A stretch of DNA of 64,000 nt from a virus (lineage: Duplodnaviria > Caudoviricetes). Position 1 is the first letter of the stretch. Each line of letters begins with the position of its first letter. The stretch covers positions 137,733 to 201,732 of IMG/VR virus record IMGVR_UViG_3300017917_003016; one strand, 5' to 3'. This document shows positions 2,128 through 12,109 of this stretch, one piece after another. Below the pieces are notes generated by a model. It worked only from the letters and a program-made list of their open reading frames with translations. It searched no databases and had not been told where the DNA came from. Position numbers and translations under genes: made by a program.

Positions 2128-3291
2128 TTAATGTGTTAGCACTTTATAAATTGCCTTATAGTCAATATGGCTATCGTCATATCCTAATTCTTTGAACAGT
2201 GTTTGACAATTTTCTAACAGTTCTTTGGTGATGACGTGTTTAAAGTCACTGTAAAAGTGATTGAAGTTATGCTCAACGATGGGAGCAATTTCTCTAGCGA
2301 TTTCTAATTTTTCTCCAGCAGACAAATTGCAGTATCGATGCAGTTCTTGAACCACAAATTCAATTCTTTGATCATTGTCTTTGATATCATCATATGATTC
2401 ATCGATGAATGGCGAGAAACTTTTGAAACCGTAGTGTTTTAGATAGGCTAGATTGCCTGGTGCAGCCAAAAGAATAAAAGGTTGTTTGCTGACAATAGGT
2501 TTAAATGTTTTTTCTGTTAAGTGCAGTTTATCATAGTAGAAAACCGTTTCGGTTACCACATGCCAAAATGCACTGTAGTCTTTGACATTATTGTTTTCGT
2601 CGTGTATGTCTAGAGTTCTGGGAATATCAGCACTGGCACTACCGTGTACATAAGGTCGATCGATTACCAATTTGTCAAGTTTGGCCATGTGCGTTTGTAT
2701 ATGTTGTATGGCATTGTAACTAAGTTTAGTTTGAGGATCTGTCACCTCAACACGCCAATCTGATTCATCGTTATCGGTAACTCCAAAACTGACCAGCCCT
2801 TGATTGAGTAACTGATGTTCTTTTAGAAGAGACACAAAATAAATCCTAAAACTTCGATCCCCATATATAAGTCTATTATAGGTGATAAAGTCTTTTTTAG
2901 GTTGTTCCGTCATTGGTTTATTATAATTCAAAGTATGATAACCACGGAACCAATCTAGAGCCGCAAAGCCATGAAAAAAGTAGTAAAGCGAACTGAGTTT
3001 ATACTTTGTGCAGATGTCAGTTACTAATCGAGATTTTTCACTGGACACAAAAACACCGGGTACTGGAATATTTTCAAGATGATCTAAGTAAGGTTTTGTT
3101 GTTGAAAGTAATACCGGTTCTTGGTCATAAAAAAAGATTTTTCTCTCAGCGTGGGGAGTTTGCGTAAATACCATTATGTCAGATCTTGACGCATTTACTA
3201 TGATTGGTACTCCTCTATCTAGATACCAAAATAAAAAATCTTTAAAAATTTTATCGTAGAAAAATTCGTAAACGTGATCAACTTGGAGCAT
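2128..3291 (-). CDS. Conserved phage protein, putative glycosyltransferase-like
   Basis: C-terminal VVTETVF..EKTFKPI...PFILL..GNLAYLK..GF..F...IDESYD motif recalled from large-phage glycan-related genes; function inferred. Confidence 0.45.
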   Translation of the reverse strand: MLQVDHVYEFFYDKIFKDFLFWYLDRGVPIIVNASRSDIMVFTQTPHAERKIFFYDQEPVLLSTTKPYLDHLENIPVPGVFVSSEKSRLVTDICTKYKLSSLYYFFHGFAALDWFRGYHTLNYNKPMTEQPKKDFITYNRLIYGDRSFRIYFVSLLKEHQLLNQGLVSFGVTDNDESDWRVEVTDPQTKLSYNAIQHIQTHMAKLDKLVIDRPYVHGSASADIPRTLDIHDENNNVKDYSAFWHVVTETVFYYDKLHLTEKTFKPIVSKQPFILLAAPGNLAYLKHYGFKSFSPFIDESYDDIKDNDQRIEFVVQELHRYCNLSAGEKLEIAREIAPIVEHNFNHFYSDFKHVITKELLENCQTLFKELGYDDSHIDYKAIYKVLTH

Positions 3292-3292
3292 T

Positions 3293-4540
3293 ATGTCATT
3301 TCAATTAAAAACTGTAGGTTTTGTTGGTATTGGTAAACTAGGACTTCCCTGCGCTGAGTCAATGGCGCAAAAATATGATGTTACGGGCTATGATATTTAC
3401 TCTAAAAAGTCAGACAAGATCAAGATATCTGATAATTTAGAGGGTGCTTGTAAAAACAAGGATGTTATTTTTGTGGCTGTGCAAACACCGCACGATCCAA
3501 TATATGATGGTAGTCAACCTATCACACATTTGGACAACAAAGACTTTGACTATACTGCAGTCAAACAAGTGCTGGCTAACATAAATCAATATGTAAACAA
3601 TCAACAACTAGTGGTTCTTATATCAACAGTTCTGCCCGGAACCACACGACGAGAACTACGTAAATGTATATCTAATGCAAGATTTATATACAATCCTTAT
3701 CTAATTGCTATGGGCAGTGTGGCCTGGGACATGGTCAATCCTGAAATGATCATTATTGGTACCGAAGACGGCAGTTTAACTGGTGACGCTCAATTGCTCA
3801 AAGACTTCTATGATCCGTTAATGGAAAACAATCCTCGCTATGCCATTGGCACATGGGATGAAGCCGAAGCAATTAAAATTTTCTATAATACATTTATCAG
3901 TGCTAAGATTGGCCTAGTAAACATGATTCAGGACGTGGCTATGAAAAACGGTAACATCAACGTTGATATAGTTACAGAGGCTCTGGCAAACAGCACTAAA
4001 CGCATAGTCAGCAGCAAATATATGAAGGCAGGTATGGGAGATGCTGGACCTTGTCATCCCCGCGATAACATAGCATTGCGTTGGTTAGCAGAACATTTAG
4101 ATCTAGGCTATGATATTTTTGATACCATCATGCATGCCAGAGAAAAGCAAGCAGAAAATTTGGCTAAATTTTTAATTCAACTACAAAAAGAAAACAATTT
4201 GCCCATAGTCATGCACGGCAAGGCCTACAAGCCAGACATCGACATCTTAGATGGTAGTTACAGTCTGTTAATCGGCAGTTATCTAAAAGAATCTAAGGCT
4301 AATTTCTTTTATGTCGATCCCATGACCAAAGATCTTTGGCACGACCCAAAGCCAGCAATTATTCTTTTGGCACACAATAGACAGGTTACCTATGGATATA
4401 CAGGCACTGCAAGTGAACAGGATTTATATTTTATTCCCTCTGGTGGCAGCATCATTGTTGACCCGTGGAGAACCTTCACTACTGATATAAAAAACTATCG
4501 AGTAATTCACTATGGCAACACTAGAAAAATTTCATCTTGA
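3293..4540 (+). CDS. ugd: UDP-glucose/GDP-mannose dehydrogenase family protein
   Basis: Rossmann GFVGIGKLG, FVAVQTP, ISTVLPG, catalytic GDAGPCHPRD, GKAYKP. Confidence 0.9.
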   Translation: MSFQLKTVGFVGIGKLGLPCAESMAQKYDVTGYDIYSKKSDKIKISDNLEGACKNKDVIFVAVQTPHDPIYDGSQPITHLDNKDFDYTAVKQVLANINQYVNNQQLVVLISTVLPGTTRRELRKCISNARFIYNPYLIAMGSVAWDMVNPEMIIIGTEDGSLTGDAQLLKDFYDPLMENNPRYAIGTWDEAEAIKIFYNTFISAKIGLVNMIQDVAMKNGNINVDIVTEALANSTKRIVSSKYMKAGMGDAGPCHPRDNIALRWLAEHLDLGYDIFDTIMHAREKQAENLAKFLIQLQKENNLPIVMHGKAYKPDIDILDGSYSLLIGSYLKESKANFFYVDPMTKDLWHDPKPAIILLAHNRQVTYGYTGTASEQDLYFIPSGGSIIVDPWRTFTTDIKNYRVIHYGNTRKISS

Positions 4541-5024
4541 ACCTTTTTGGGATAACCAATATGTTAGACTAGAATACAAAAATGAACCATTTAACAGCCA
4601 CCTTGATGTGTCACGGTGGTTGGTAATGGGCTACGGACCTAAATTCACTGGCGACATGTGTGACATGAGAAAATCTCAGCCCGATTGGAACAATCAAATA
4701 ATCAAACACTTTCAAAATTTGGGTTGGCAAGATGTCTGCACTAGTTACTACCGAATGACCAGCGGCACTGTATTGCCCGAACATATTGATACCTACAAAC
4801 GATACATAGAAATTTTTAACCTCAAAGGTTGCGAACAGACCATACAACGTGCATTGATATTTTTAGAAGATTGGGCCAGTGGTCACTATTTGGAAATAGA
4901 ACAGGTTCCCATAACGGGCTGGGCACGAGGAGACTACTATGTTTGGTCTAAAGACACACCACATATGGCTGCAAACCTAGGTGCAAGACCTAGATATACT
5001 CTACAGGTCACTGGACACCTATGA
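4512..5024 (+). CDS. 2OG-Fe(II)/cupin-fold oxygenase
   Basis: PEHID (HxD), distal His in TPHMAAN, R in PRYTLQVTG. Confidence 0.7.
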   Translation: MATLEKFHLEPFWDNQYVRLEYKNEPFNSHLDVSRWLVMGYGPKFTGDMCDMRKSQPDWNNQIIKHFQNLGWQDVCTSYYRMTSGTVLPEHIDTYKRYIEIFNLKGCEQTIQRALIFLEDWASGHYLEIEQVPITGWARGDYYVWSKDTPHMAANLGARPRYTLQVTGHL

Positions 5025-5932
5025 TAATAAACAGCACCAACGAATGGGGAAGATTGCGCAGTGTAGTTGTGGGCACGGCCAATCATGCTAACTGGCCAAC
5101 AAATGATCCAGTTTTTTCTCAAGAAAGTCTCAAAACAACATGGAAAGAAACCCCAGTGCCACAGGGTCCCGTTCCACAATGGATTATCGACGAAACCAAC
5201 GAAGACTTAGAAAAATTAGTCGATACTTTGAAACTAATGTCTATAGATGTAGTACGTCCTAAAGACATGAATTTTCAACAGTTGGGGGGAATGTATAACT
5301 ACTGCCCCCGTGATCGCTTGTTAATCTGGAAAGATTATATAGTTGATACTGCCATGATGTATCCCTGTCGAAACATGGAAATTCATGCATTGTCTGACAT
5401 AACCGCTGCCGGAAAAGTAATCAGCATGCCTCGTGATCAAGGTCTGATCCTTGATGCGGCCAATATCTGTCGATTAGGCAACACTTGGTTATTTTTAGAA
5501 AGTTCTAGTGGCAATCGTTTGGCCTACGAGTGGTTACAAAAACGATTTAGCGATATCAATATCGAGTTGGTAAATTTTTACTCTGGTGTACATATTGACT
5601 CGACTATATGTCCGCTGCGTGAGGGATTTGTAGTGTTAAATGCCAGTCGTGTCACAGCCAGCAATTGTCCTAAAGCCTTTGACGGGTGGACGAAGTTATG
5701 GGTTGACCATGTAGAAGCACAGAGTTTCTACCAATATCCCTATGCCAGCAAATGGATCGGTCTTAACATGTTAAGTATCGATCCAAACACCGTTGTTGTT
5801 GATCAAAATCAAGTGCAGTTAATCAAAGATCTAGAAAAATTTGGGTTTACGGTAATACCTTTAGAACTACGACATTCACGTACTCTAGGGGGAGGGTTCC
5901 ACTGTGTAACCCTTGATTTACTTAGGGATTAA
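5021..5932 (+). CDS. Amidinotransferase (Arg:Gly / inosamine-phosphate amidinotransferase family)
   Basis: NEWGRLRSVVVG, NYCPRD, catalytic D (LDAAN), H (HIDST), C (GGGFHC). Confidence 0.9.
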   Translation: MIINSTNEWGRLRSVVVGTANHANWPTNDPVFSQESLKTTWKETPVPQGPVPQWIIDETNEDLEKLVDTLKLMSIDVVRPKDMNFQQLGGMYNYCPRDRLLIWKDYIVDTAMMYPCRNMEIHALSDITAAGKVISMPRDQGLILDAANICRLGNTWLFLESSSGNRLAYEWLQKRFSDINIELVNFYSGVHIDSTICPLREGFVVLNASRVTASNCPKAFDGWTKLWVDHVEAQSFYQYPYASKWIGLNMLSIDPNTVVVDQNQVQLIKDLEKFGFTVIPLELRHSRTLGGGFHCVTLDLLRD

Positions 5933-5938
5933 TAAATA
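5932..5938 (+). promoter_or_regulatory. Late promoter-like ATAAATA
   Basis: Intergenic, 18 nt before the ATG at 5957. Confidence 0.55.
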
Positions 5939-5956
5939 ATAAAAAATGGAAATTTT

Positions 5957-6688
5957 ATGTCCCAAAGTTTTGCTAGGTACACAGAAACATCTGTAAAAGC
6001 CTACCAGTTCAATCCAAAGAAGAACGAGATCATTGATCGTAAAAAAGAAATATTGGATTCTATAATCGATCATTATGGTAGTTCTCCTTCCTCTGTTCTA
6101 TTCTACGGGTTTAGTCCTCTTATGCTGGGCTGTAATTCCAAACAGATTGCAGTGGCCAGTATAACTTCTGAAATAAAAACTTTTCTGGATACGCTGTCAA
6201 TTAAATACAGTTATATCAAAGAAGAAGATTTAACACAGTATCGCAAGAAATTTAACTGGGTAATTGCTGGAGATGAGTATTTTACTTTTGCGCAGTCTGA
6301 ACAGGAACAAATGACTAAAATACAAGAAACCTGCTCGTTGGCACAAGATCTAATGATTACAACCCTAAAAGACTACAAGAATCAAGATTTTCGAGACCGT
6401 GAATTTAGCCAGCCGTTGGCTGTGCACTGTCAAAATAATACAAAAATATTTTTAGAGAATCATGACCATGATTTAACTGATAGAAATTCATGGCAAACCA
6501 CAGTGTGGGAATTAGAAAAAACAAAGTCTAACGTATACGGACCTTTTGCCAGACGTAGCATGTATTTTAAACAGATGGCTAAATTTTCAATTGATGCAGG
6601 TGCTAAGAATTTCTTTGTACATAAGAATTTAATGTACAAAAGTTTAATAAAAAAGAACTACGAGCACGTAATATCAATTAGTTTTTAA
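5957..6688 (+). CDS. Hypothetical protein (possibly degenerate methyltransferase fold)
   Basis: 243-aa ORF; VLFYGFSP and WVIAGDEYF weakly resemble Rossmann strands; no firm motif. Confidence 0.5.
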   Translation: MSQSFARYTETSVKAYQFNPKKNEIIDRKKEILDSIIDHYGSSPSSVLFYGFSPLMLGCNSKQIAVASITSEIKTFLDTLSIKYSYIKEEDLTQYRKKFNWVIAGDEYFTFAQSEQEQMTKIQETCSLAQDLMITTLKDYKNQDFRDREFSQPLAVHCQNNTKIFLENHDHDLTDRNSWQTTVWELEKTKSNVYGPFARRSMYFKQMAKFSIDAGAKNFFVHKNLMYKSLIKKNYEHVISISF

Positions 6689-6721: not shown

Positions 6722-7996
6722 ATGGATATCAATAGCCAATTACAGCCAATTATTGCCGGCATGATAAATGATCTTAAGGTACAGATCAATCATGAATTGC
6801 GGCAACAATTATCCGGTGAAATAGTCAAAAGTTTGGCTGCTACAGAATTGACCAGCATAATTCAACAGGCAGTTAAAAATCAAGTTGAGGCCAGATTAGA
6901 AAAATTTGATTTTGCTGGTACCGGACAGCAGGAATTAAAAATAGCATTTAAACAGATCACTGACACGGTTAATAAAAATCTTGCCGCAGCCACTAACAAA
7001 CAAATCACTGAGTTTGTCAATCAAAAATTAGCCCAGATAAACATACAAGATTCAATTGCAGCCGTGGTACAGACAGCCTTGGGAGAAAATCTCAAAGGTA
7101 CTACATTTCCTGCGGGCAGTATTCATCATTCATCTGTTAACTTTGCTGGATTTCAAATAACAGGTAGTGCGATCAAAGGCGGAATCATTGAAAATTTTGG
7201 CAGCGTTGGCGTAGAAGATCGTGCCAGTCATGTTCAAATGACCATAATGGACCATGCTGTGGCTTTTGAAAATCCTGTATACAGCCCCGAGTTAAATGTC
7301 ACAGGTAACCTCACAGTAAATGGTCAGGTTGTTTTATATGGTGGGTTAGACAGCGATTCTCCGGGATTTAAACAATTGGTTAATAAAACCAGCGATGCTG
7401 TTAGAGAAGACCTAAATGATGAACTATTCTCTGGCTTTAGTGACACTGTCTTTAATCAAATCAAAAACCAAGGAATAGATCTAGACAAGGTTTCACAAGG
7501 CGGCCGCGAAATTGTCAGTGGCAACCGACTGGGTTATCATATTGTTGATACTAATATTCAACGTGTTGGGATATTGAATGATCTACAGACCTCCGGCGAA
7601 AATCTTCTGTGTGATACCTTGTATGTGACTGCGCGCCGCGTGGGTATTAACACCATGGAGCCGACTAATACCCTGAGCATATGGGATCAGGAAGTTGAAT
7701 TTTCTGTAACCAAACATAGTCAAGACACTGGCTACATCGGCACTCCTCGAAATCAAAAACTAGTCTTAGGATCAAACAACAAACAAAATCTTGTGCTTAA
7801 TCCAGACGGCACTGTCAAGGTAGAACACCTAGATATTGGTCCCATTGCCATGACCAGCCATAATGTAATACCTAATTATCCCAGCAGGGCTGGACATATA
7901 GTTTGGAACACTGCACCAGCAGAAGGTGGAGTTATAGGATGGGTCTGTCTAGGTGGTGCCCAGTGGGCAGGGTTTGGCAAGATAGAAAACCATTGA
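6722..7996 (+). CDS. Probable virion/tail-associated protein
   Basis: N-terminal coiled coil; C-terminal GHIVWNTAPAEGGVIGWVCLGGAQWAGFGKI motif typical of phage fibre C-termini. Confidence 0.55.
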   Translation: MDINSQLQPIIAGMINDLKVQINHELRQQLSGEIVKSLAATELTSIIQQAVKNQVEARLEKFDFAGTGQQELKIAFKQITDTVNKNLAAATNKQITEFVNQKLAQINIQDSIAAVVQTALGENLKGTTFPAGSIHHSSVNFAGFQITGSAIKGGIIENFGSVGVEDRASHVQMTIMDHAVAFENPVYSPELNVTGNLTVNGQVVLYGGLDSDSPGFKQLVNKTSDAVREDLNDELFSGFSDTVFNQIKNQGIDLDKVSQGGREIVSGNRLGYHIVDTNIQRVGILNDLQTSGENLLCDTLYVTARRVGINTMEPTNTLSIWDQEVEFSVTKHSQDTGYIGTPRNQKLVLGSNNKQNLVLNPDGTVKVEHLDIGPIAMTSHNVIPNYPSRAGHIVWNTAPAEGGVIGWVCLGGAQWAGFGKIENH

Positions 7997-8051: not shown

Positions 8052-9083
8052 TTGACCACTCAACGCATCGGCTTTGCCTGCAAATGGATTGATGACCCCA
8101 GTCAAGTTAACGGCATCAAAGCCAAAGACACCTGCAAAATCTATAACACTGGCACTACCACAGTAGCATGGTTAAATAGACAGGCACGAGATGTGTCTGT
8201 GGCAAAACTGTGGTCTTTAATGCAACAGAACATTGAATCTACACAAAAACTTATCGAAAAGGTTGGTGCACTAGATGAACACCTTAGAATGGTTCGTCTC
8301 TCAAGTGATATACTTCCAGTATATACAGAGTCTAATTGGAGTTGGTTTTGGCGTGAGCCTGACGTTAGGCTTTATGCTGAACGGGCGTTTGGCAAGGTTG
8401 GTGATGCTGCTAGGCGCCTTGGTGTGCGCATTAGTTTTCATCCGGGTCAATTCTGCGTTTTGGCTTCAGATTCTGTCAACATTGTTGACCGTAGTATAGA
8501 AGAATTTGAATATCACGCGGACATGGCTCGCTGGATGGGCTACGGCCGTGAATTCCAAGACATGAAGATCAACGTACACATTGCCGGCCGGCAAGGCCCT
8601 GAAGGTATTCGTCGTGTACTAAACAGACTCACACCCGAAGCACGTAATTGTATTACTATTGAAAACGAGGAGATGAAACATGGACTTGACGATTGTCTCA
8701 GCATCAGTGATTGTGTGCCTATTGTTCTTGACATACACCATCATTGGGTTCGCGAGGGGGAATACATTCAAGCAAATGATGATAGAGTTAAACGAGTTTG
8801 GGATAGTTGGCGCGGCCGTCGTCCTACTTGCCATTATAGTGTTAGTCGAGAAGACGTCCTTGTAAACCATTGCGGCCAAACTCTGCCCGATCATCAGATC
8901 TTGTTAGAAACAGGCTATAAGAAAAGCCATCTCCGTGCACACAGCAACTTCTACTGGAACTCTAAGGTCAACGATTGGGCCTTGACTTTCTGGGAAAAAT
9001 TTGATATAATGTGTGAATCAAAAGCAAAAAACCTTGCTAGTTTTGCCTTGTTTGAGCATGCTAAGGCTAACGGGGTAGTGTAA
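8052..9083 (+). CDS. uvsE: UV-damage endonuclease
   Basis: RIGFACK, VRLSSDILP, SFHPGQFCVLAS, INVHIAG, TIENEE, VLDIHHH, RAHS. Confidence 0.92.
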   Translation: MTTQRIGFACKWIDDPSQVNGIKAKDTCKIYNTGTTTVAWLNRQARDVSVAKLWSLMQQNIESTQKLIEKVGALDEHLRMVRLSSDILPVYTESNWSWFWREPDVRLYAERAFGKVGDAARRLGVRISFHPGQFCVLASDSVNIVDRSIEEFEYHADMARWMGYGREFQDMKINVHIAGRQGPEGIRRVLNRLTPEARNCITIENEEMKHGLDDCLSISDCVPIVLDIHHHWVREGEYIQANDDRVKRVWDSWRGRRPTCHYSVSREDVLVNHCGQTLPDHQILLETGYKKSHLRAHSNFYWNSKVNDWALTFWEKFDIMCESKAKNLASFALFEHAKANGVV

Positions 9084-9334: not shown

Positions 9335-9734
9335 TATGTATGCCTATAGTGCTACCAAAGTCAACACACAACGAGACTATTGGGATGGATATGATTTTGA
9401 AAAGAAAAAGTCTAACAGTCCAGAGCCCAAAGAACTGGCCTACTGGCGCAAGCATCCCAACCTCCATGGTTGGATGGAACGTCTATGGGAAAGCAAGGGC
9501 TGTCCTGGAGACAATCCAGAAGATATGTTCAACGGTGTAGAACTGGAATTGACCTGGGAGGATCTTGAACAACTAGAACAAGATGTCAGTGCTGGTCGAT
9601 TACCTGAAACCGCAGGTTTCTTTTTCGGCGCCGCCAGCGATGAATATTATCGAGAACAGGATCTTCAGTTTATTCGTGAGGCCAAAGCAGATATCATTGT
9701 GGGACTAAAGGTTTTTTACAATAGTTCATGGTAA
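9324..9734 (+). CDS. Conserved phage hypothetical protein
   Basis: MGLDMY...ELAYWRKHPNLHGWM motif; SD AAGGAG. Confidence 0.75.
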   Translation: MGLDMYAYSATKVNTQRDYWDGYDFEKKKSNSPEPKELAYWRKHPNLHGWMERLWESKGCPGDNPEDMFNGVELELTWEDLEQLEQDVSAGRLPETAGFFFGAASDEYYREQDLQFIREAKADIIVGLKVFYNSSW

Positions 9735-9961
9735 CTGATCAATTGAATTGGTATTTGGAGTGGATAGCCACAGCCGTGCTGATCTTTGGTACTGCTGTAA
9801 ACAGTCTTGGCTACTATCCCCTGGGTCCCATTCTCTTGTGCCTGGGCGGCGCTATTTGGACTGTGGTAGCGATACGCTGGCGTAGACCTAGTCTAATTGT
9901 AGTTAATATCATTATGCTACTAACAGGCATTACTGGTCTAGCATGGAATTATCTTGCATGA
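9728..9961 (+). CDS. Small three-helix membrane protein
   Basis: Three hydrophobic segments. Confidence 0.7.
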   Translation: MVTDQLNWYLEWIATAVLIFGTAVNSLGYYPLGPILLCLGGAIWTVVAIRWRRPSLIVVNIIMLLTGITGLAWNYLA

Positions 9962-10212
9962 AAGAATTAGAATTTAACGATGATTGGCAGTATAATAATG
10001 AAGAAGAAGCCGAGATGGGCCAACTTCATGCCATTCACAACAACATGAATGCTGTAGCAGATGTTCGCCGTAGACTTGAAAAACAGTCAAGTCAACCATC
10101 GGCTGAATTCTGTGAAGAATGTGGTGATGACATTCCTTTGGCTCGCCGCACGGCTGTGCCCGGAGTAAAGTATTGCATTTTTTGTCAAGAAAAACACGAA
10201 CGGAGATATTAA
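9958..10212 (+). CDS. TraR/DksA-family C4 zinc-finger protein
   Basis: CEECGDDIPLARR...PGVKYCIFCQ; start at 9958 overlaps upstream stop (ATGA). Confidence 0.88.
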   Translation: MKELEFNDDWQYNNEEEAEMGQLHAIHNNMNAVADVRRRLEKQSSQPSAEFCEECGDDIPLARRTAVPGVKYCIFCQEKHERRY

Positions 10213-10215
10213 AAC

Positions 10216-10806
10216 ATGCCTAATCTAGTACCAATGGTTCTTGAACGCACCAGTCAAGGTGAACGCAGTTATGATTTGTATTCAAGACTGCTCAAAGACC
10301 GCATTGTGATTCTTGACACTGACGTCAACGAACACTCAGCAAGTCTTATTGTTGCTCAATTGCTGTTCCTTGAAGCAGAAGATGCTGAAAAAGATATTTT
10401 GTTCTATATCAACAGTCCAGGGGGTATTATCACTGCTGGTATGAGCATTTATGATACCATGCAGTTTATTCGTCCTCAGGTCAGCACCATTGTAATGGGA
10501 CAGGCCTGCTCAATGGGCAGTTTTCTTGCACAAGCAGGGGCCCCAGGCAAACGTATGATGCTGCCCAATGCTCGACACATGATTCACCAACCTAGCGGTG
10601 GTGCACGTGGCATGGCTTCAGACATTGAAATTTCCTACAAGGAAATCATGCACTGGAAGCAACGTCTAACAGAACTTTATGTAGAGCACAATACCTCAGG
10701 TAAAACCTATGAAGATTTTGAGCGGGACATGGATCGTGACACTTTTATGAGTGCACAGGAATCTCTGGAGTATGGCCTCTGTGACGAAATTATCACTAAA
10801 CGATAA
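10216..10806 (+). CDS. clpP: ATP-dependent Clp protease proteolytic subunit
   Basis: [25 protein letters not shown] (Ser), MIHQP (His), DRDTFMSA (Asp). Confidence 0.96.
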
Positions 10807-12109
10807 TTTTTGCTCTAGCCCGTGGTTTCATGTCAAAATAAATCCCGGCGGTGACTTTGTTCCTTGCCGCTGGGACGCCGTCACGCTGACTAGTGATTAT
10901 AATATTGCAAATACCAGTATCAGCGAATATATAAATTCCTTGCCCATGCAAACTTTACGCATGGATCTACTAGAAGGAAAACAAATAAAAATCTGTGATT
11001 CATGTAAAAATGAAGATCGGAATCACAAGGTCAGCGGAAGAAGTCGACAACTGCTCAAAAGTGCAATAGACATAGAAAATTTTAATAAAACTTTTTGTGC
11101 CAGTCCGCATTTTGAATGGTTTGACTATTCCTATAGAAATCAAGGTCTGACTAAAAATTTGCCTGTAGACCTTCAAATTGATTTGGGCAATGCCTGCAAC
11201 AGCGGGTGTTTAATGTGCCATCCAATTTATAGTAGTAGGTTGCATACAGATTATCAAAAACTTTACAAATCAGATCCAATTGTTTTTGATTACACTACAC
11301 CAAAACGAAATTGGACCGATGACAAATTTCTAGTGGATAAGTTTGTAGATGAACTATCAACTATTCCAAATTTGAGATATCTGCATTTACTTGGTGGTGA
11401 AACACTTTATCTAGAAAGTTTTTATGCTATATGTGAAAAACTTATCGAAAAAGGGTTGGCTAAAAATATAAGCCTAGGCACTACAACAAACTGCACAGTG
11501 TATACCCCTAGATTAGAAAAAATACTACAAGAGTTCAAACATGTTCATATTGGTCTGAGTATCGAAGCATTTCATCCTCTCAACGATTACATTAGATGGC
11601 CTAGCAAATTAGAAGACGTTCAAGAAAATATCAAAAAATTTGTGGCTTTGAGAAACTCCTCAGATCTACAGTTGAGTTTGAGAATTACTCCCTGTAATCT
11701 CAGTATTGGTCACTTGGATACTGTGTTTGATTTTATGATCAAACATTCTATAATTGCTGAAAGTTGTAATCTCTTAGTGAACCCTAGTTTCTTACGAATT
11801 GAAATTCTACCGCATAACCTGTTAATGTCCGCTTTAGATAAAATCAATAATGTGATTAAAAAACACAAGTTGATCCCCAATTATGATGCATATGTCAATA
11901 GAAGAAACGAGTCTATTAGAAATGAAATTGTTTCTAAGACTATTTTTGAATACAAAGACCTATTAGAAAATCTGCAACCAGTTGAAAATCCAAAGCAGGA
12001 AAGACTGAATTTGGTTAAATTTTTAAAGGGATTTGAAGAACTTAGAAAAAACTGTATCCTAGACTATCTGCCAGAATATGAAGAATTTTTACGAAGCCAC
12101 AATTACTAG
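10751..12109 (+). CDS. Radical SAM protein with N-terminal twitch/SPASM-like Cys cluster; true start may be 10772 or 10781
   Basis: [19 protein letters not shown] (CxxxCxxC), LLGGETL. Confidence 0.88.

Follow-up and report, generated by a model that had tools for sequence, protein, structure and literature searches.

A gene cluster with a predicted StrB1-type amidinotransferase in an uncultured jumbo myophage, and the N-amidino sugar it may make

The window analysed here is a 64-kb stretch of DNA, the last 64 kb of the 201.7-kb IMG/VR virus record IMGVR_UViG_3300017917_003016, and its source is an uncultured aquatic jumbo myophage. The record is 56% complete according to CheckV, and near-complete relatives of the phage measure 316-345 kb, with terminal repeats in one of them. 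Near its start the window carries a compact cluster of genes for a glycosyltransferase-like (GT-like) protein, a nucleoside diphosphate (NDP) sugar dehydrogenase homologue (ugd), a small oxygenase and an amidinotransferase homologue, which together might make a sugar bearing an arginine-derived amidino group. The members and candidate members of the cluster are listed by window coordinates (aa, amino acids; SAM, S-adenosylmethionine).

2128..3291, minus strand: GT-like gene, 387 aa, GT-B-fold glycosyltransferase-like, by structure
3293..4540, plus strand: ugd-like gene, 415 aa, predicted NDP-sugar dehydrogenase (UDP-glucose/GDP-mannose dehydrogenase family)
4512..5024, plus strand: oxygenase gene, 170 aa, predicted minimal Fe(II)/2-oxoglutarate (2OG) oxygenase
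5021..5932, plus strand: amidinotransferase gene, 303 aa, predicted StrB1-type L-arginine amidinotransferase, short form
5957..6688, plus strand: orf243, 243 aa, class I SAM-methyltransferase fold; accessory member of putative activity
6722..7996, plus strand: orf424, 424 aa, travels with the cluster; candidate member
10751..12109, plus strand: twitch/SPASM radical SAM gene, 452 aa; possible distal partner, candidate only

The plus-strand core is translationally coupled. The ugd and oxygenase genes overlap by 29 nt and the oxygenase and amidinotransferase genes by 4 nt; reading frames and overlaps are as an earlier note on this DNA, written from its letters alone, had described them. The GT-like gene and ugd are read divergently, on the minus and plus strand respectively, from start codons 1 nt apart (window 3289-3295), so that the promoter and ribosome-binding site of each have to lie inside the coding sequence of the other. 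The ugd start is preceded by GGAG, and there is no clear Shine-Dalgarno sequence at the GT-like start. A promoter scan found no more sites than in shuffled sequences. The sole TATAAATA near the cluster lies at 2107-2114 on the minus strand and stands at the head of the operon that follows the GT-like gene downstream. No cluster protein contains a transmembrane-like segment.

By its sequence, the 303-aa protein is assigned to the amidinotransferase family (the StrB1/AGAT branch of the guanidino-group-modifying 'pentein' superfamily). Its best solved relative in a phmmer search of the PDB is StrB1, the L-arginine:inosamine-phosphate amidinotransferase of S. griseus (1BWD; E 1.5e-53, 185 bits), which it matches over its full length (residues 3-302); AGAT (1.2e-25), SxtG (3.7e-24) and HsvA (3.1e-23) follow as weaker matches. 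Residues D98, R117, D145, H191, D193 and C295 align with StrB1 D108, R127, D179, H227, D229 and C332, and all six are invariant across 15 homologues. The two enzymes share the catalytic Cys/His/Asp and the guanidino-binding Asp; from the roles assigned in StrB1 and AGAT we take C295, H191 and D145 to be the Cys-His-Asp triad and D98 and D193 to be the guanidino-binding Asp residues. At 303 aa the phage protein is shorter than StrB1 (348 aa) and lacks about 25-35 residues between StrB1 residues 137 and 173, which might leave its active site more open. Pfam and NCBIfam models gave sub-threshold matches to ADI, DDAH and arginine dihydrolase over the C-terminal Cys region only, which accounts for the label 'dimethylarginine dimethylaminohydrolase' that databases give to relatives. 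More than 7000 metagenomic homologues were found.

The earlier note had left the choice between AGAT and StrB1 to phylogeny. A quick IQ-TREE analysis of 76 rows (SH-aLRT support only; AGAT-like Streptomyces proteins as outgroup) places the window enzyme on the StrB1 side and not with AGAT, in a clade of 24 phage and metagenome rows with 99% SH-aLRT support, inside which the short forms of about 300 aa make up one subclade. The phage enzymes overall group with StrB1-like enzymes from aminocyclitol clusters of Streptomyces and Mycobacterium rather than with the AGAT-like proteins; the amidinotransferase of Campylobacter phage CP220 is a long branch close to the root. StrB1-like genes are accompanied in Streptomyces by genes for DegT/StrS, inosamine-phosphate amidinotransferase and phosphotransferase, and on Mycobacterium plasmids by those for alcohol dehydrogenase, Gfo/Idh/MocA oxidoreductase, aminotransferase and phosphotransferase, and the StrB1-type acceptor is a phosphorylated six-membered amino-polyol. 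The window enzyme, by contrast, sits in a phage-only clade and has ugd, a minimal 2OG oxygenase and a GT-B protein as neighbours. We do not regard it as an StrB1 orthologue because the context of the inosamine pathway is absent: no inositol dehydrogenase, StsC-type aminotransferase or kinase was found in the window cluster.

In some relatives the amidinotransferase gene is followed, 4-6 kb downstream, by that of a very divergent paralogue with 20-27% identity (L011:13854-14351; L014:6853-7317; L024/L025:12430-13077; L026/L027:13306-14211, where L numbers denote loci). Likewise, Synechococcus phage S-SCSM2R has two amidinotransferases, the second of which was found together with a prolyl-hydroxylase-like protein in purified virion preparations (PMC12801897). 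This occurrence in virions fits strong late expression and does not by itself identify a substrate.

The 170-aa protein has no Pfam, NCBIfam or PHROG family match, and a profile search of the PDB returned only AtsK (E 0.27). Its AlphaFold2 (AF2) model (pLDDT 91.8) shows a double-stranded beta-helix (DSBH) fold, for which Foldseek found 104 PDB matches at E <= 0.001, with Fe/2OG dioxygenases in the lead; AsqJ, FtmOx1, SptF and the prolyl 4-hydroxylase (P4H) of P. putida are the top matches (E from 6.5e-5, probability 1.0). H91-x-D93, H151 and R161 are invariant among 19 homologues, and R161, ten residues past H151, is the candidate 2OG-binding Arg, placed by position only. The modelled DSBH fold and the HxD...H triad together argue that the protein is an Fe/2OG oxygenase. 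It is 29% identical to ORF308 of S-SCSM2R (E 3e-22). Two other proposed relatives were rejected: CP220 gp085 has no similarity to the oxygenase, and a StrG-type link was dropped since hhalign showed no relation between the oxygenase and the 'streptomycin biosynthesis protein' whose gene adjoins a Streptomyces StrB1-like gene.

The dehydrogenase assignment of ugd is supported by two Pfam domains above their cut-offs, PF03721 (2.5e-18, 66.8 bits) and PF00984 (9.1e-16, 58.2 bits), and by a match to phrog_9148 at 2.7e-100. Its C-terminal UDP-binding domain (PF03720) scores 23.7 bits against a cut-off of 30 and TIGR03026 152.3 bits against 189.8; none of the equivalog models comes near its cut-off. 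The motifs are intact, with GxGxxG at residue 12, K-x3-N at 195 and the catalytic-Cys motif GPCHPRD at 252. Identity is 57% to the ugd of Synechococcus phage Bellamy and 49% to that of Pelagibacter phage HTVC008M.

The GT-like label is supported by structure only. No Pfam match and no PDB sequence match was obtained, 19 members of the family gave no Pfam glycosyltransferase match even at E <= 5, and tblastn of the protein against deposited phages found nothing. The AF2 model (pLDDT 84.4, pTM 0.87) retrieved GT-B enzymes only in Foldseek, with T4 beta-glucosyltransferase (BGT) first at E 1.2e-3. A wide VIA-align search ranked T4 BGT (Z 11.0) and T4 alpha-glucosyltransferase (AGT; Z 10.4) above fucosyltransferases (Z 7.8-9.6) and other GT-B enzymes (Z <= 9.6), with 240-286 residues aligned in the high-ranking matches; the lead of the T4 enzymes is about 1 Z unit, a gap that VIA-align counts as a tie. 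The alignments to the T4 alpha- and beta-glucosyltransferases (1Y6F, 1C3J) extend over 266-282 residues of the GT-B fold at 7-10% identity. The protein is thus modelled as a GT-B glycosyltransferase-like enzyme. E248 and T259-E260-K261 are invariant in the family, and we take them to resemble the TEK motif of GT10 fucosyltransferases; membership in GT10 itself was set aside as unsupported, there being no Pfam signal even at E 5.

The same genome encodes two further GT-like paralogues upstream of the window, both on the minus strand (G000:C1:127525-128541 and G000:C1:97366-98388), which match the family profile at E 3e-31 and 4.5e-25. Each is a lone minus-strand gene amid plus-strand genes (metallophosphoesterase, PD-(D/E)XK nuclease, RNase H-like). 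The opposite-strand placement of all three copies may reflect a separate temporal class.

Alignment, conservation and motif positions thus bear out the earlier note in that the catalytic motifs of amidinotransferase, oxygenase and dehydrogenase are intact. Its family names for these three proteins were right as well, and its GT-like label stands on the fold only.

The cluster is conserved. Among IMG/VR loci we found 33 with an amidinotransferase 61-72% identical to that of the window, and the core arrangement, GT-like gene on the minus strand facing ugd, oxygenase and amidinotransferase on the plus strand, is kept in all of them as far as the contigs reach, with L029 and L030 as exceptions. 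The flanks vary. Depending on the locus, UvdE lies downstream of the core or else upstream of the GT-like gene, and orf243 and orf424 are present or absent, so that the core survives rearrangement around it. The 4-nt overlap of oxygenase and amidinotransferase genes is retained in many of these loci and in S-SCSM2R. Six loci carry a GIY-YIG homing endonuclease gene between the two (L004:7392-7922, minus strand; also L003, L005, L014, L015 and L035); it encodes a 176-aa protein with NUMOD-like repeats, assigned to its family by eye, and splits the overlapping pair from the opposite strand.

Phage contigs binned into bacterial metagenome-assembled genomes (MAGs) show the same layout, and in one of these (L039) the interval from the GT-like gene to the oxygenase gene showed no detectable ugd. 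The MAGs of L038-L043 are named Haliscomenobacter, Bacteroidetes, Terrimicrobiaceae, Legionella and Legionellales; as these loci look like phage contigs in species-representative bacterial genomes, the names are not reliable for the host. A scan of genome contigs for cellular relatives gave only such phage-like contigs in MAGs.

Distant carriers provide stronger evidence of a real cluster than the close loci do. Two further scans seeded with metagenomic relatives yielded 24 viral loci with amidinotransferases of 32-48% identity, two of them re-fetched contigs of the first set; a viral contig scan seeded with the metagenomic relative P0126 gave no match. From the 24 we took 12 non-redundant distant loci and clustered their 148 neighbouring open reading frames (ORFs) with the window proteins. 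The commonest neighbour is the GT-like family (12 members, in 7 of the 12 loci), often with several copies to a locus and sharing the amidinotransferase operon. The 170-aa oxygenase family follows with 6 members in 4 loci, and relatives of the window radical SAM protein with 4 members in 3. By Pfam domain the 148 neighbours include 16 Radical_SAM (the commonest), 7 2OG-FeII_Oxy_3, 5 NDP-sugar epimerase/dehydratase, 5 SPASM, 3 dTDP-4-dehydrorhamnose epimerase (RmlC), 2 DegT and 1 carbamoyltransferase. The linkage of these genes exceeds chance, because the core is kept while its neighbours rearrange and because its partners recur in distant phages. The broader conserved unit is the amidinotransferase with the small oxygenase and the GT-like protein, with or without radical SAM enzymes. 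The earlier note had named cluster conservation as a check, and this is how it turned out.

Downstream of the amidinotransferase, orf243 has structural neighbours in the ESM Atlas among Methyltransf_11/25 clusters (TM-score 0.75-0.81 over 225-237 residues), which suggests a class I methyltransferase fold. Its activity is uncertain: the conserved stretch L48-F49-x-G51-F52-S53-P54 departs from GxGxG and the SAM motif looks degenerate by eye, Pfam gave no match, and a profile search of the PDB returned no methyltransferase, GAMT included. About two-thirds of the 33 related loci have the gene directly after the amidinotransferase; in L022-L031 it was not found. In most related loci orf424 follows the cluster, at 30-67% identity. 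This protein has no Pfam or PHROG match; a role as tail fibre was considered and rejected, as it has no similarity to the tail-fibre proteins of the window and its Atlas lead to phage-tail-like trimerisation proteins is weak.

The window radical SAM protein matches NF033640 (N_Twi_rSAM) at 4.7e-72, above the cut-off, has weak PapB-type similarity and is, we assume, of the BtrN type. Relatives with 20-29% identity lie beside amidinotransferases in L061, L062, L066, L069-L072, L081 and L082. In the window, genes for UvdE, a DksA-type zinc finger and ClpP intervene between it and the cluster:

8052-9083: UvdE-type UV endonuclease
9728-9961: DUF6552
9943-10212: DksA/TraR-type zinc finger
10216-10806: ClpP (orf196)

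The ClpP and radical SAM genes overlap by 56 nt, and the order ClpP, radical SAM, orf127 is preserved in relatives. ClpP (orf196) recurs beside an amidinotransferase in L059 and was rejected as a cluster member for what it is. GroEL, a 1286-aa virion structural protein, a 2280-aa tail-fibre-like protein and DNA ligase are also encoded in the window.

Parts of the cluster have been seen before. The earlier note knew of no characterised phage pathway of this kind, which is correct, although published phages have carried annotations of the amidinotransferase gene from 2010 onwards (PMC2853527, PMC12801897). Campylobacter phages CP220 and CPt10 have a 'putative glycine amidinotransferase', annotated in 2010 (Timms et al., PMC2853527), which like that of the window stands among tailoring enzymes and nucleotide-diphospho-sugar transferase-like genes. 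The CP220 enzyme is 24% identical to the window enzyme and adjoins two GT-A-like genes; in contrast to the window, CP220 lacks ugd and has five radical SAM genes, and a homologue of the 170-aa oxygenase could not be detected in it. In S-SCSM2R an 'inosamine amidinotransferase' and 'antibiotic synthesis genes' were named by annotation alone (PMC12801897). Its ORF308 and ORF309 correspond to the oxygenase (29%) and the amidinotransferase (34%) and show the same 4-nt overlap; they lie amid glycosyltransferases, a short DegT/AHBA-synthase-like gene and a radical SAM gene. This locus differs from the window in that no ugd and no homologue of the 387-aa GT-like protein was detected. The oxygenase and amidinotransferase genes of S-SCSM2R and the amidinotransferase gene of CP220 were thus already annotated, and none of them has been characterised.

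For ugd, the closest comparison is with HTVC008M and Bellamy, aquatic T4-like myophages that share its family (49-57% identity) and its setting in co-directional sugar-tailoring operons. The ugd and glycosyltransferase genes of pelagimyophages were listed as related to lipopolysaccharide (LPS), and modification of the host O-chain was proposed (Zaragoza-Solas et al. 2020, PMC7029224). In Bellamy (L036, 868-6877) and HTVC008M (L037, 1633-5780) ugd stands by a NadE-like ATP-dependent amidating enzyme, a NodU-type carbamoyltransferase and a methyltransferase, with a glycosyltransferase also in the Bellamy operon, whereas in the window it is joined by oxygenase, amidinotransferase and a GT-B protein from a different family. 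The Bellamy and HTVC008M neighbours suggest a carbamoylated, methylated uronamide sugar. In our reading, ugd is the source of a uronic-acid scaffold which different phages decorate with different tailoring sets; amidinotransferase, oxygenase and GT-like protein would be one such set, and would act on other scaffolds too.

An amidino group needs an amine to go to, and the genomes offer a candidate source. The four near-complete relatives (G001-G004) have one or two full-length DegT aminotransferase genes each (E 1e-85 to 1e-99), beside genes for a 4,6-dehydratase/epimerase of the short-chain dehydrogenase/reductase (SDR) type. In the two DegT regions examined, those of G001 and G004, a carbamoyltransferase and a radical SAM gene are present as well, and G004 adds a Gfo/Idh/MocA oxidoreductase. 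The DegT and dehydratase genes indicate that the phage lineage can make NDP-amino sugars, which we infer to be the acceptors of the amidinotransferase. In P. aeruginosa, 3-amino uronic acids that receive an acetamidino group arise by the WbpA/B/E route, which combines a ugd-type dehydrogenase, a Gfo/Idh/MocA oxidoreductase and a DegT aminotransferase; a guanidino group in that place would vary this theme in a natural way. In three lineages an ORF of about 200 aa resembling DegT/AHBA synthase, too short for a normal fold-type I aminotransferase, lies near the phage amidinotransferase: directly upstream in L060 (6403-7008), two genes upstream in L043 (6647-7252) and three genes upstream in S-SCSM2R (L001:5293-5880). 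Short DegT-like frames also occur elsewhere in G001-G004.

With an enzyme on the StrB1 side and with sugar-modifying and GT-like neighbours in unrelated phages, a guanidinylated sugar is the most economical reading of these data. The best reading of the module is one that is soluble and cytoplasmic. Judged by gene content, it is roughly an even call that the cluster is a joint module for nucleotide-sugar tailoring and attachment which makes an N-amidino sugar. In the scheme that follows, product and target are inferred, as are all substrates and the sequence of steps. The ugd-like enzyme would oxidise a host-supplied NDP-hexose (or N-acetylhexosamine) to the uronic acid, and the small Fe/2OG oxygenase would oxidise or hydroxylate the sugar or the arginine-derived group. 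The amidinotransferase would load the amidino group of L-arginine on Cys295 and pass it to the primary amine of a sugar-like acceptor, most likely an amino sugar that DegT-type aminotransferases, encoded at other places in the genome, help to make; the result would be an N-amidino (guanidino) sugar. The methyltransferase-fold protein may then methylate the product, and the GT-B protein (one of the three paralogues found) would attach the completed unit to an acceptor in the cytoplasm, for which a virion protein is the most plausible candidate.

The earlier note had proposed that a guanidinylated sugar decorates virion protein, DNA or the host surface. Its sugar part is supported by the pathway context; of its targets, DNA has become disfavoured on account of the single thymidylate synthases and the failure to find DpdA, both described below. 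No flippase, polymerase or GT-C glycosyltransferase was found nearby, and since the cluster proteins are soluble as well, a cytoplasmic acceptor is likelier than a host surface polysaccharide. Virion protein is our preferred guess. Chloroviruses, mimiviruses and mycobacteriophages encode glycan synthesis for virion glycosylation; there, as predicted for the cluster, soluble virus-encoded sugar enzymes and glycosyltransferases act in the cytoplasm without membrane machinery. To our knowledge none of these virus glycan systems includes an amidinotransferase. The wider claim that a widespread group of aquatic jumbo and T4-like phages places an arginine-derived guanidino sugar on virion proteins by means of its own GT-B family is possible, and we put it forward tentatively as something we would rather doubt than expect.

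Several observations weigh against a joint pathway to such a sugar. The cluster contains no aminotransferase, the 56%-complete window record has no DegT match, and in the relatives a distance of more than 90 kb separates the DegT sugar genes from the amidinotransferase cluster. The link to ugd is limited to one amidinotransferase clade, as ugd accompanies only short-form enzymes of about 300 aa (those of the window relatives, L060/L061 and L043), and L029 and L030 lack the oxygenase. The close loci represent one phage lineage, so their synteny alone is weak evidence and may partly be inherited rather than selected. The GT-like protein stands outside any sequence-level family, and the neighbourhoods of its two paralogues are unrelated to the sugar cluster. 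Finally, cellular StrB1-like enzymes serve small-molecule pathways, and we know of no natural glycan with an N-amidino hexose.

The genes could also be independent auxiliary genes without a joint pathway, in which case ugd and the glycosyltransferase might, for example, alter the envelope polysaccharide of the host, while the amidinotransferase makes a free guanidino compound (guanidinoacetate, an agmatine-like polyamine or homoarginine) that oxygenase or methyltransferase then modify. An amidinotransferase followed by a methyltransferase of about 240 aa echoes the AGAT and GAMT logic of creatine synthesis, and HsvA, among the PDB relatives of the amidinotransferase, is presumably a polyamine amidinotransferase. 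Bellamy and HTVC008M have the same ugd family without an amidinotransferase, most distant amidinotransferase loci have no ugd, and the reading of pelagimyophage ugd and glycosyltransferases as O-chain modifiers (PMC7029224) points the same way. The creatine-like logic was nonetheless rejected, as the orf243 profile finds no GAMT in the PDB and the amidinotransferase falls on the StrB1 side, and the 29- and 4-nt overlaps, the persistence of the genes together across related loci despite rearranged flanks, the recurrence of GT-like and oxygenase partners in unrelated phages and the lack of membrane components for envelope modification all speak for a common function, which leaves independence a small though real chance. 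DNA hypermodification, in which the GT-B protein would glycosylate a modified base, ugd supply a uronic acid and the amidinotransferase add a cationic guanidino group, is highly improbable. It would suit the solubility of all cluster proteins and the rank of T4 BGT and AGT as the two best structure matches of the GT-like protein, with BGT first in Foldseek too. It also has a precedent in phage SP-15, for which a UDP-glucose dehydrogenase was proposed to act in DNA hypermodification, with phosphoglucuronolactone on the DNA (PMC5977210). However, the lead of the T4 enzymes amounts to a tie, and the four 91-100% complete cluster-carrying relatives have one thymidylate synthase each (a canonical ThyA, E 4e-109, in one and ThyX in three), so that there is no spare hydroxymethylase, which T4-type DNA glucosylation requires. 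TGT/DpdA was not found in these four genomes, nor was there a match to Tet_JBP, in a search that had no valid positive control. In each of G001-G004 the thymidylate synthase gene and the DegT/dehydratase sugar genes are a few kb apart.

A diffusible small molecule, that is an aminoglycoside- or aminocyclitol-like or other guanidino product directed against the host, competitors or superinfecting phages, is quite unlikely. The nearest cellular relatives of the amidinotransferase do sit in aminocyclitol-type clusters (Streptomyces, Mycobacterium), and a toolkit of twitch radical SAM, DegT, Gfo/Idh/MocA, carbamoyltransferase and glycosyltransferase genes resembles aminoglycoside logic, in line with the term 'antibiotic synthesis genes' chosen by the S-SCSM2R authors (PMC12801897). 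Against this, neither the cluster nor its neighbours showed a gene for an inositol-phosphate or 2-deoxy-scyllo-inosose synthase, a sugar or inosamine kinase, an exporter or self-resistance; the presence of several GT-like paralogues in a genome and in a locus suits glycan assembly better, and a lytic phage would have little time to benefit from an antibiotic that it secretes. Editing of protein side chains is very unlikely too: here the oxygenase would hydroxylate Pro, Lys or Asn, the amidinotransferase would turn Lys or ornithine into homoarginine or arginine, the GT-B protein would glycosylate the hydroxylated residues and radical SAM/SPASM enzymes would serve as peptide maturases. We know of no amidinotransferase that acts on protein side chains. 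The idea draws on the P. putida prolyl 4-hydroxylase, which has the highest TM-score among the top matches of the oxygenase, on the SPASM/twitch domain and weak PapB-type similarity of the window radical SAM protein, on the residues missing from the short amidinotransferase, whose loss might open the active site, and on the second amidinotransferase and prolyl-hydroxylase-like protein of S-SCSM2R virion preparations (PMC12801897). No precursor peptide or leader-recognition element was identified, however, and chemistry on free sugars is what the neighbours (NDP-sugar dehydrogenase, dehydratase, epimerase, DegT) indicate.

Sugar-tailoring genes of phages are usually filed as 'LPS-related' auxiliary genes and left there. 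Virus-encoded sugar tailoring as such is known; what would be new in the cluster is its predicted arginine-dependent amidino transfer step. Amidino transfer from arginine is well-understood chemistry and gives a testable handle on the 'tailoring islands' of aquatic jumbo phages; its enzyme is bound to an oxygenase and a phage-specific GT-B family by overlap and recurrence, and has thousands of metagenomic copies. Cultured carriers exist in S-SCSM2R, which grows on Synechococcus WH7803, and in CP220-type phages, which grow on Campylobacter. Were the product a small molecule, it would be an aminoglycoside-like compound made by a phage. If, as we prefer, virions receive a guanidino sugar, glycans would gain a new building block and phages a novel means of altering their surface charge: the particle would wear a permanently cationic sugar coat, affecting adsorption or evading host recognition.

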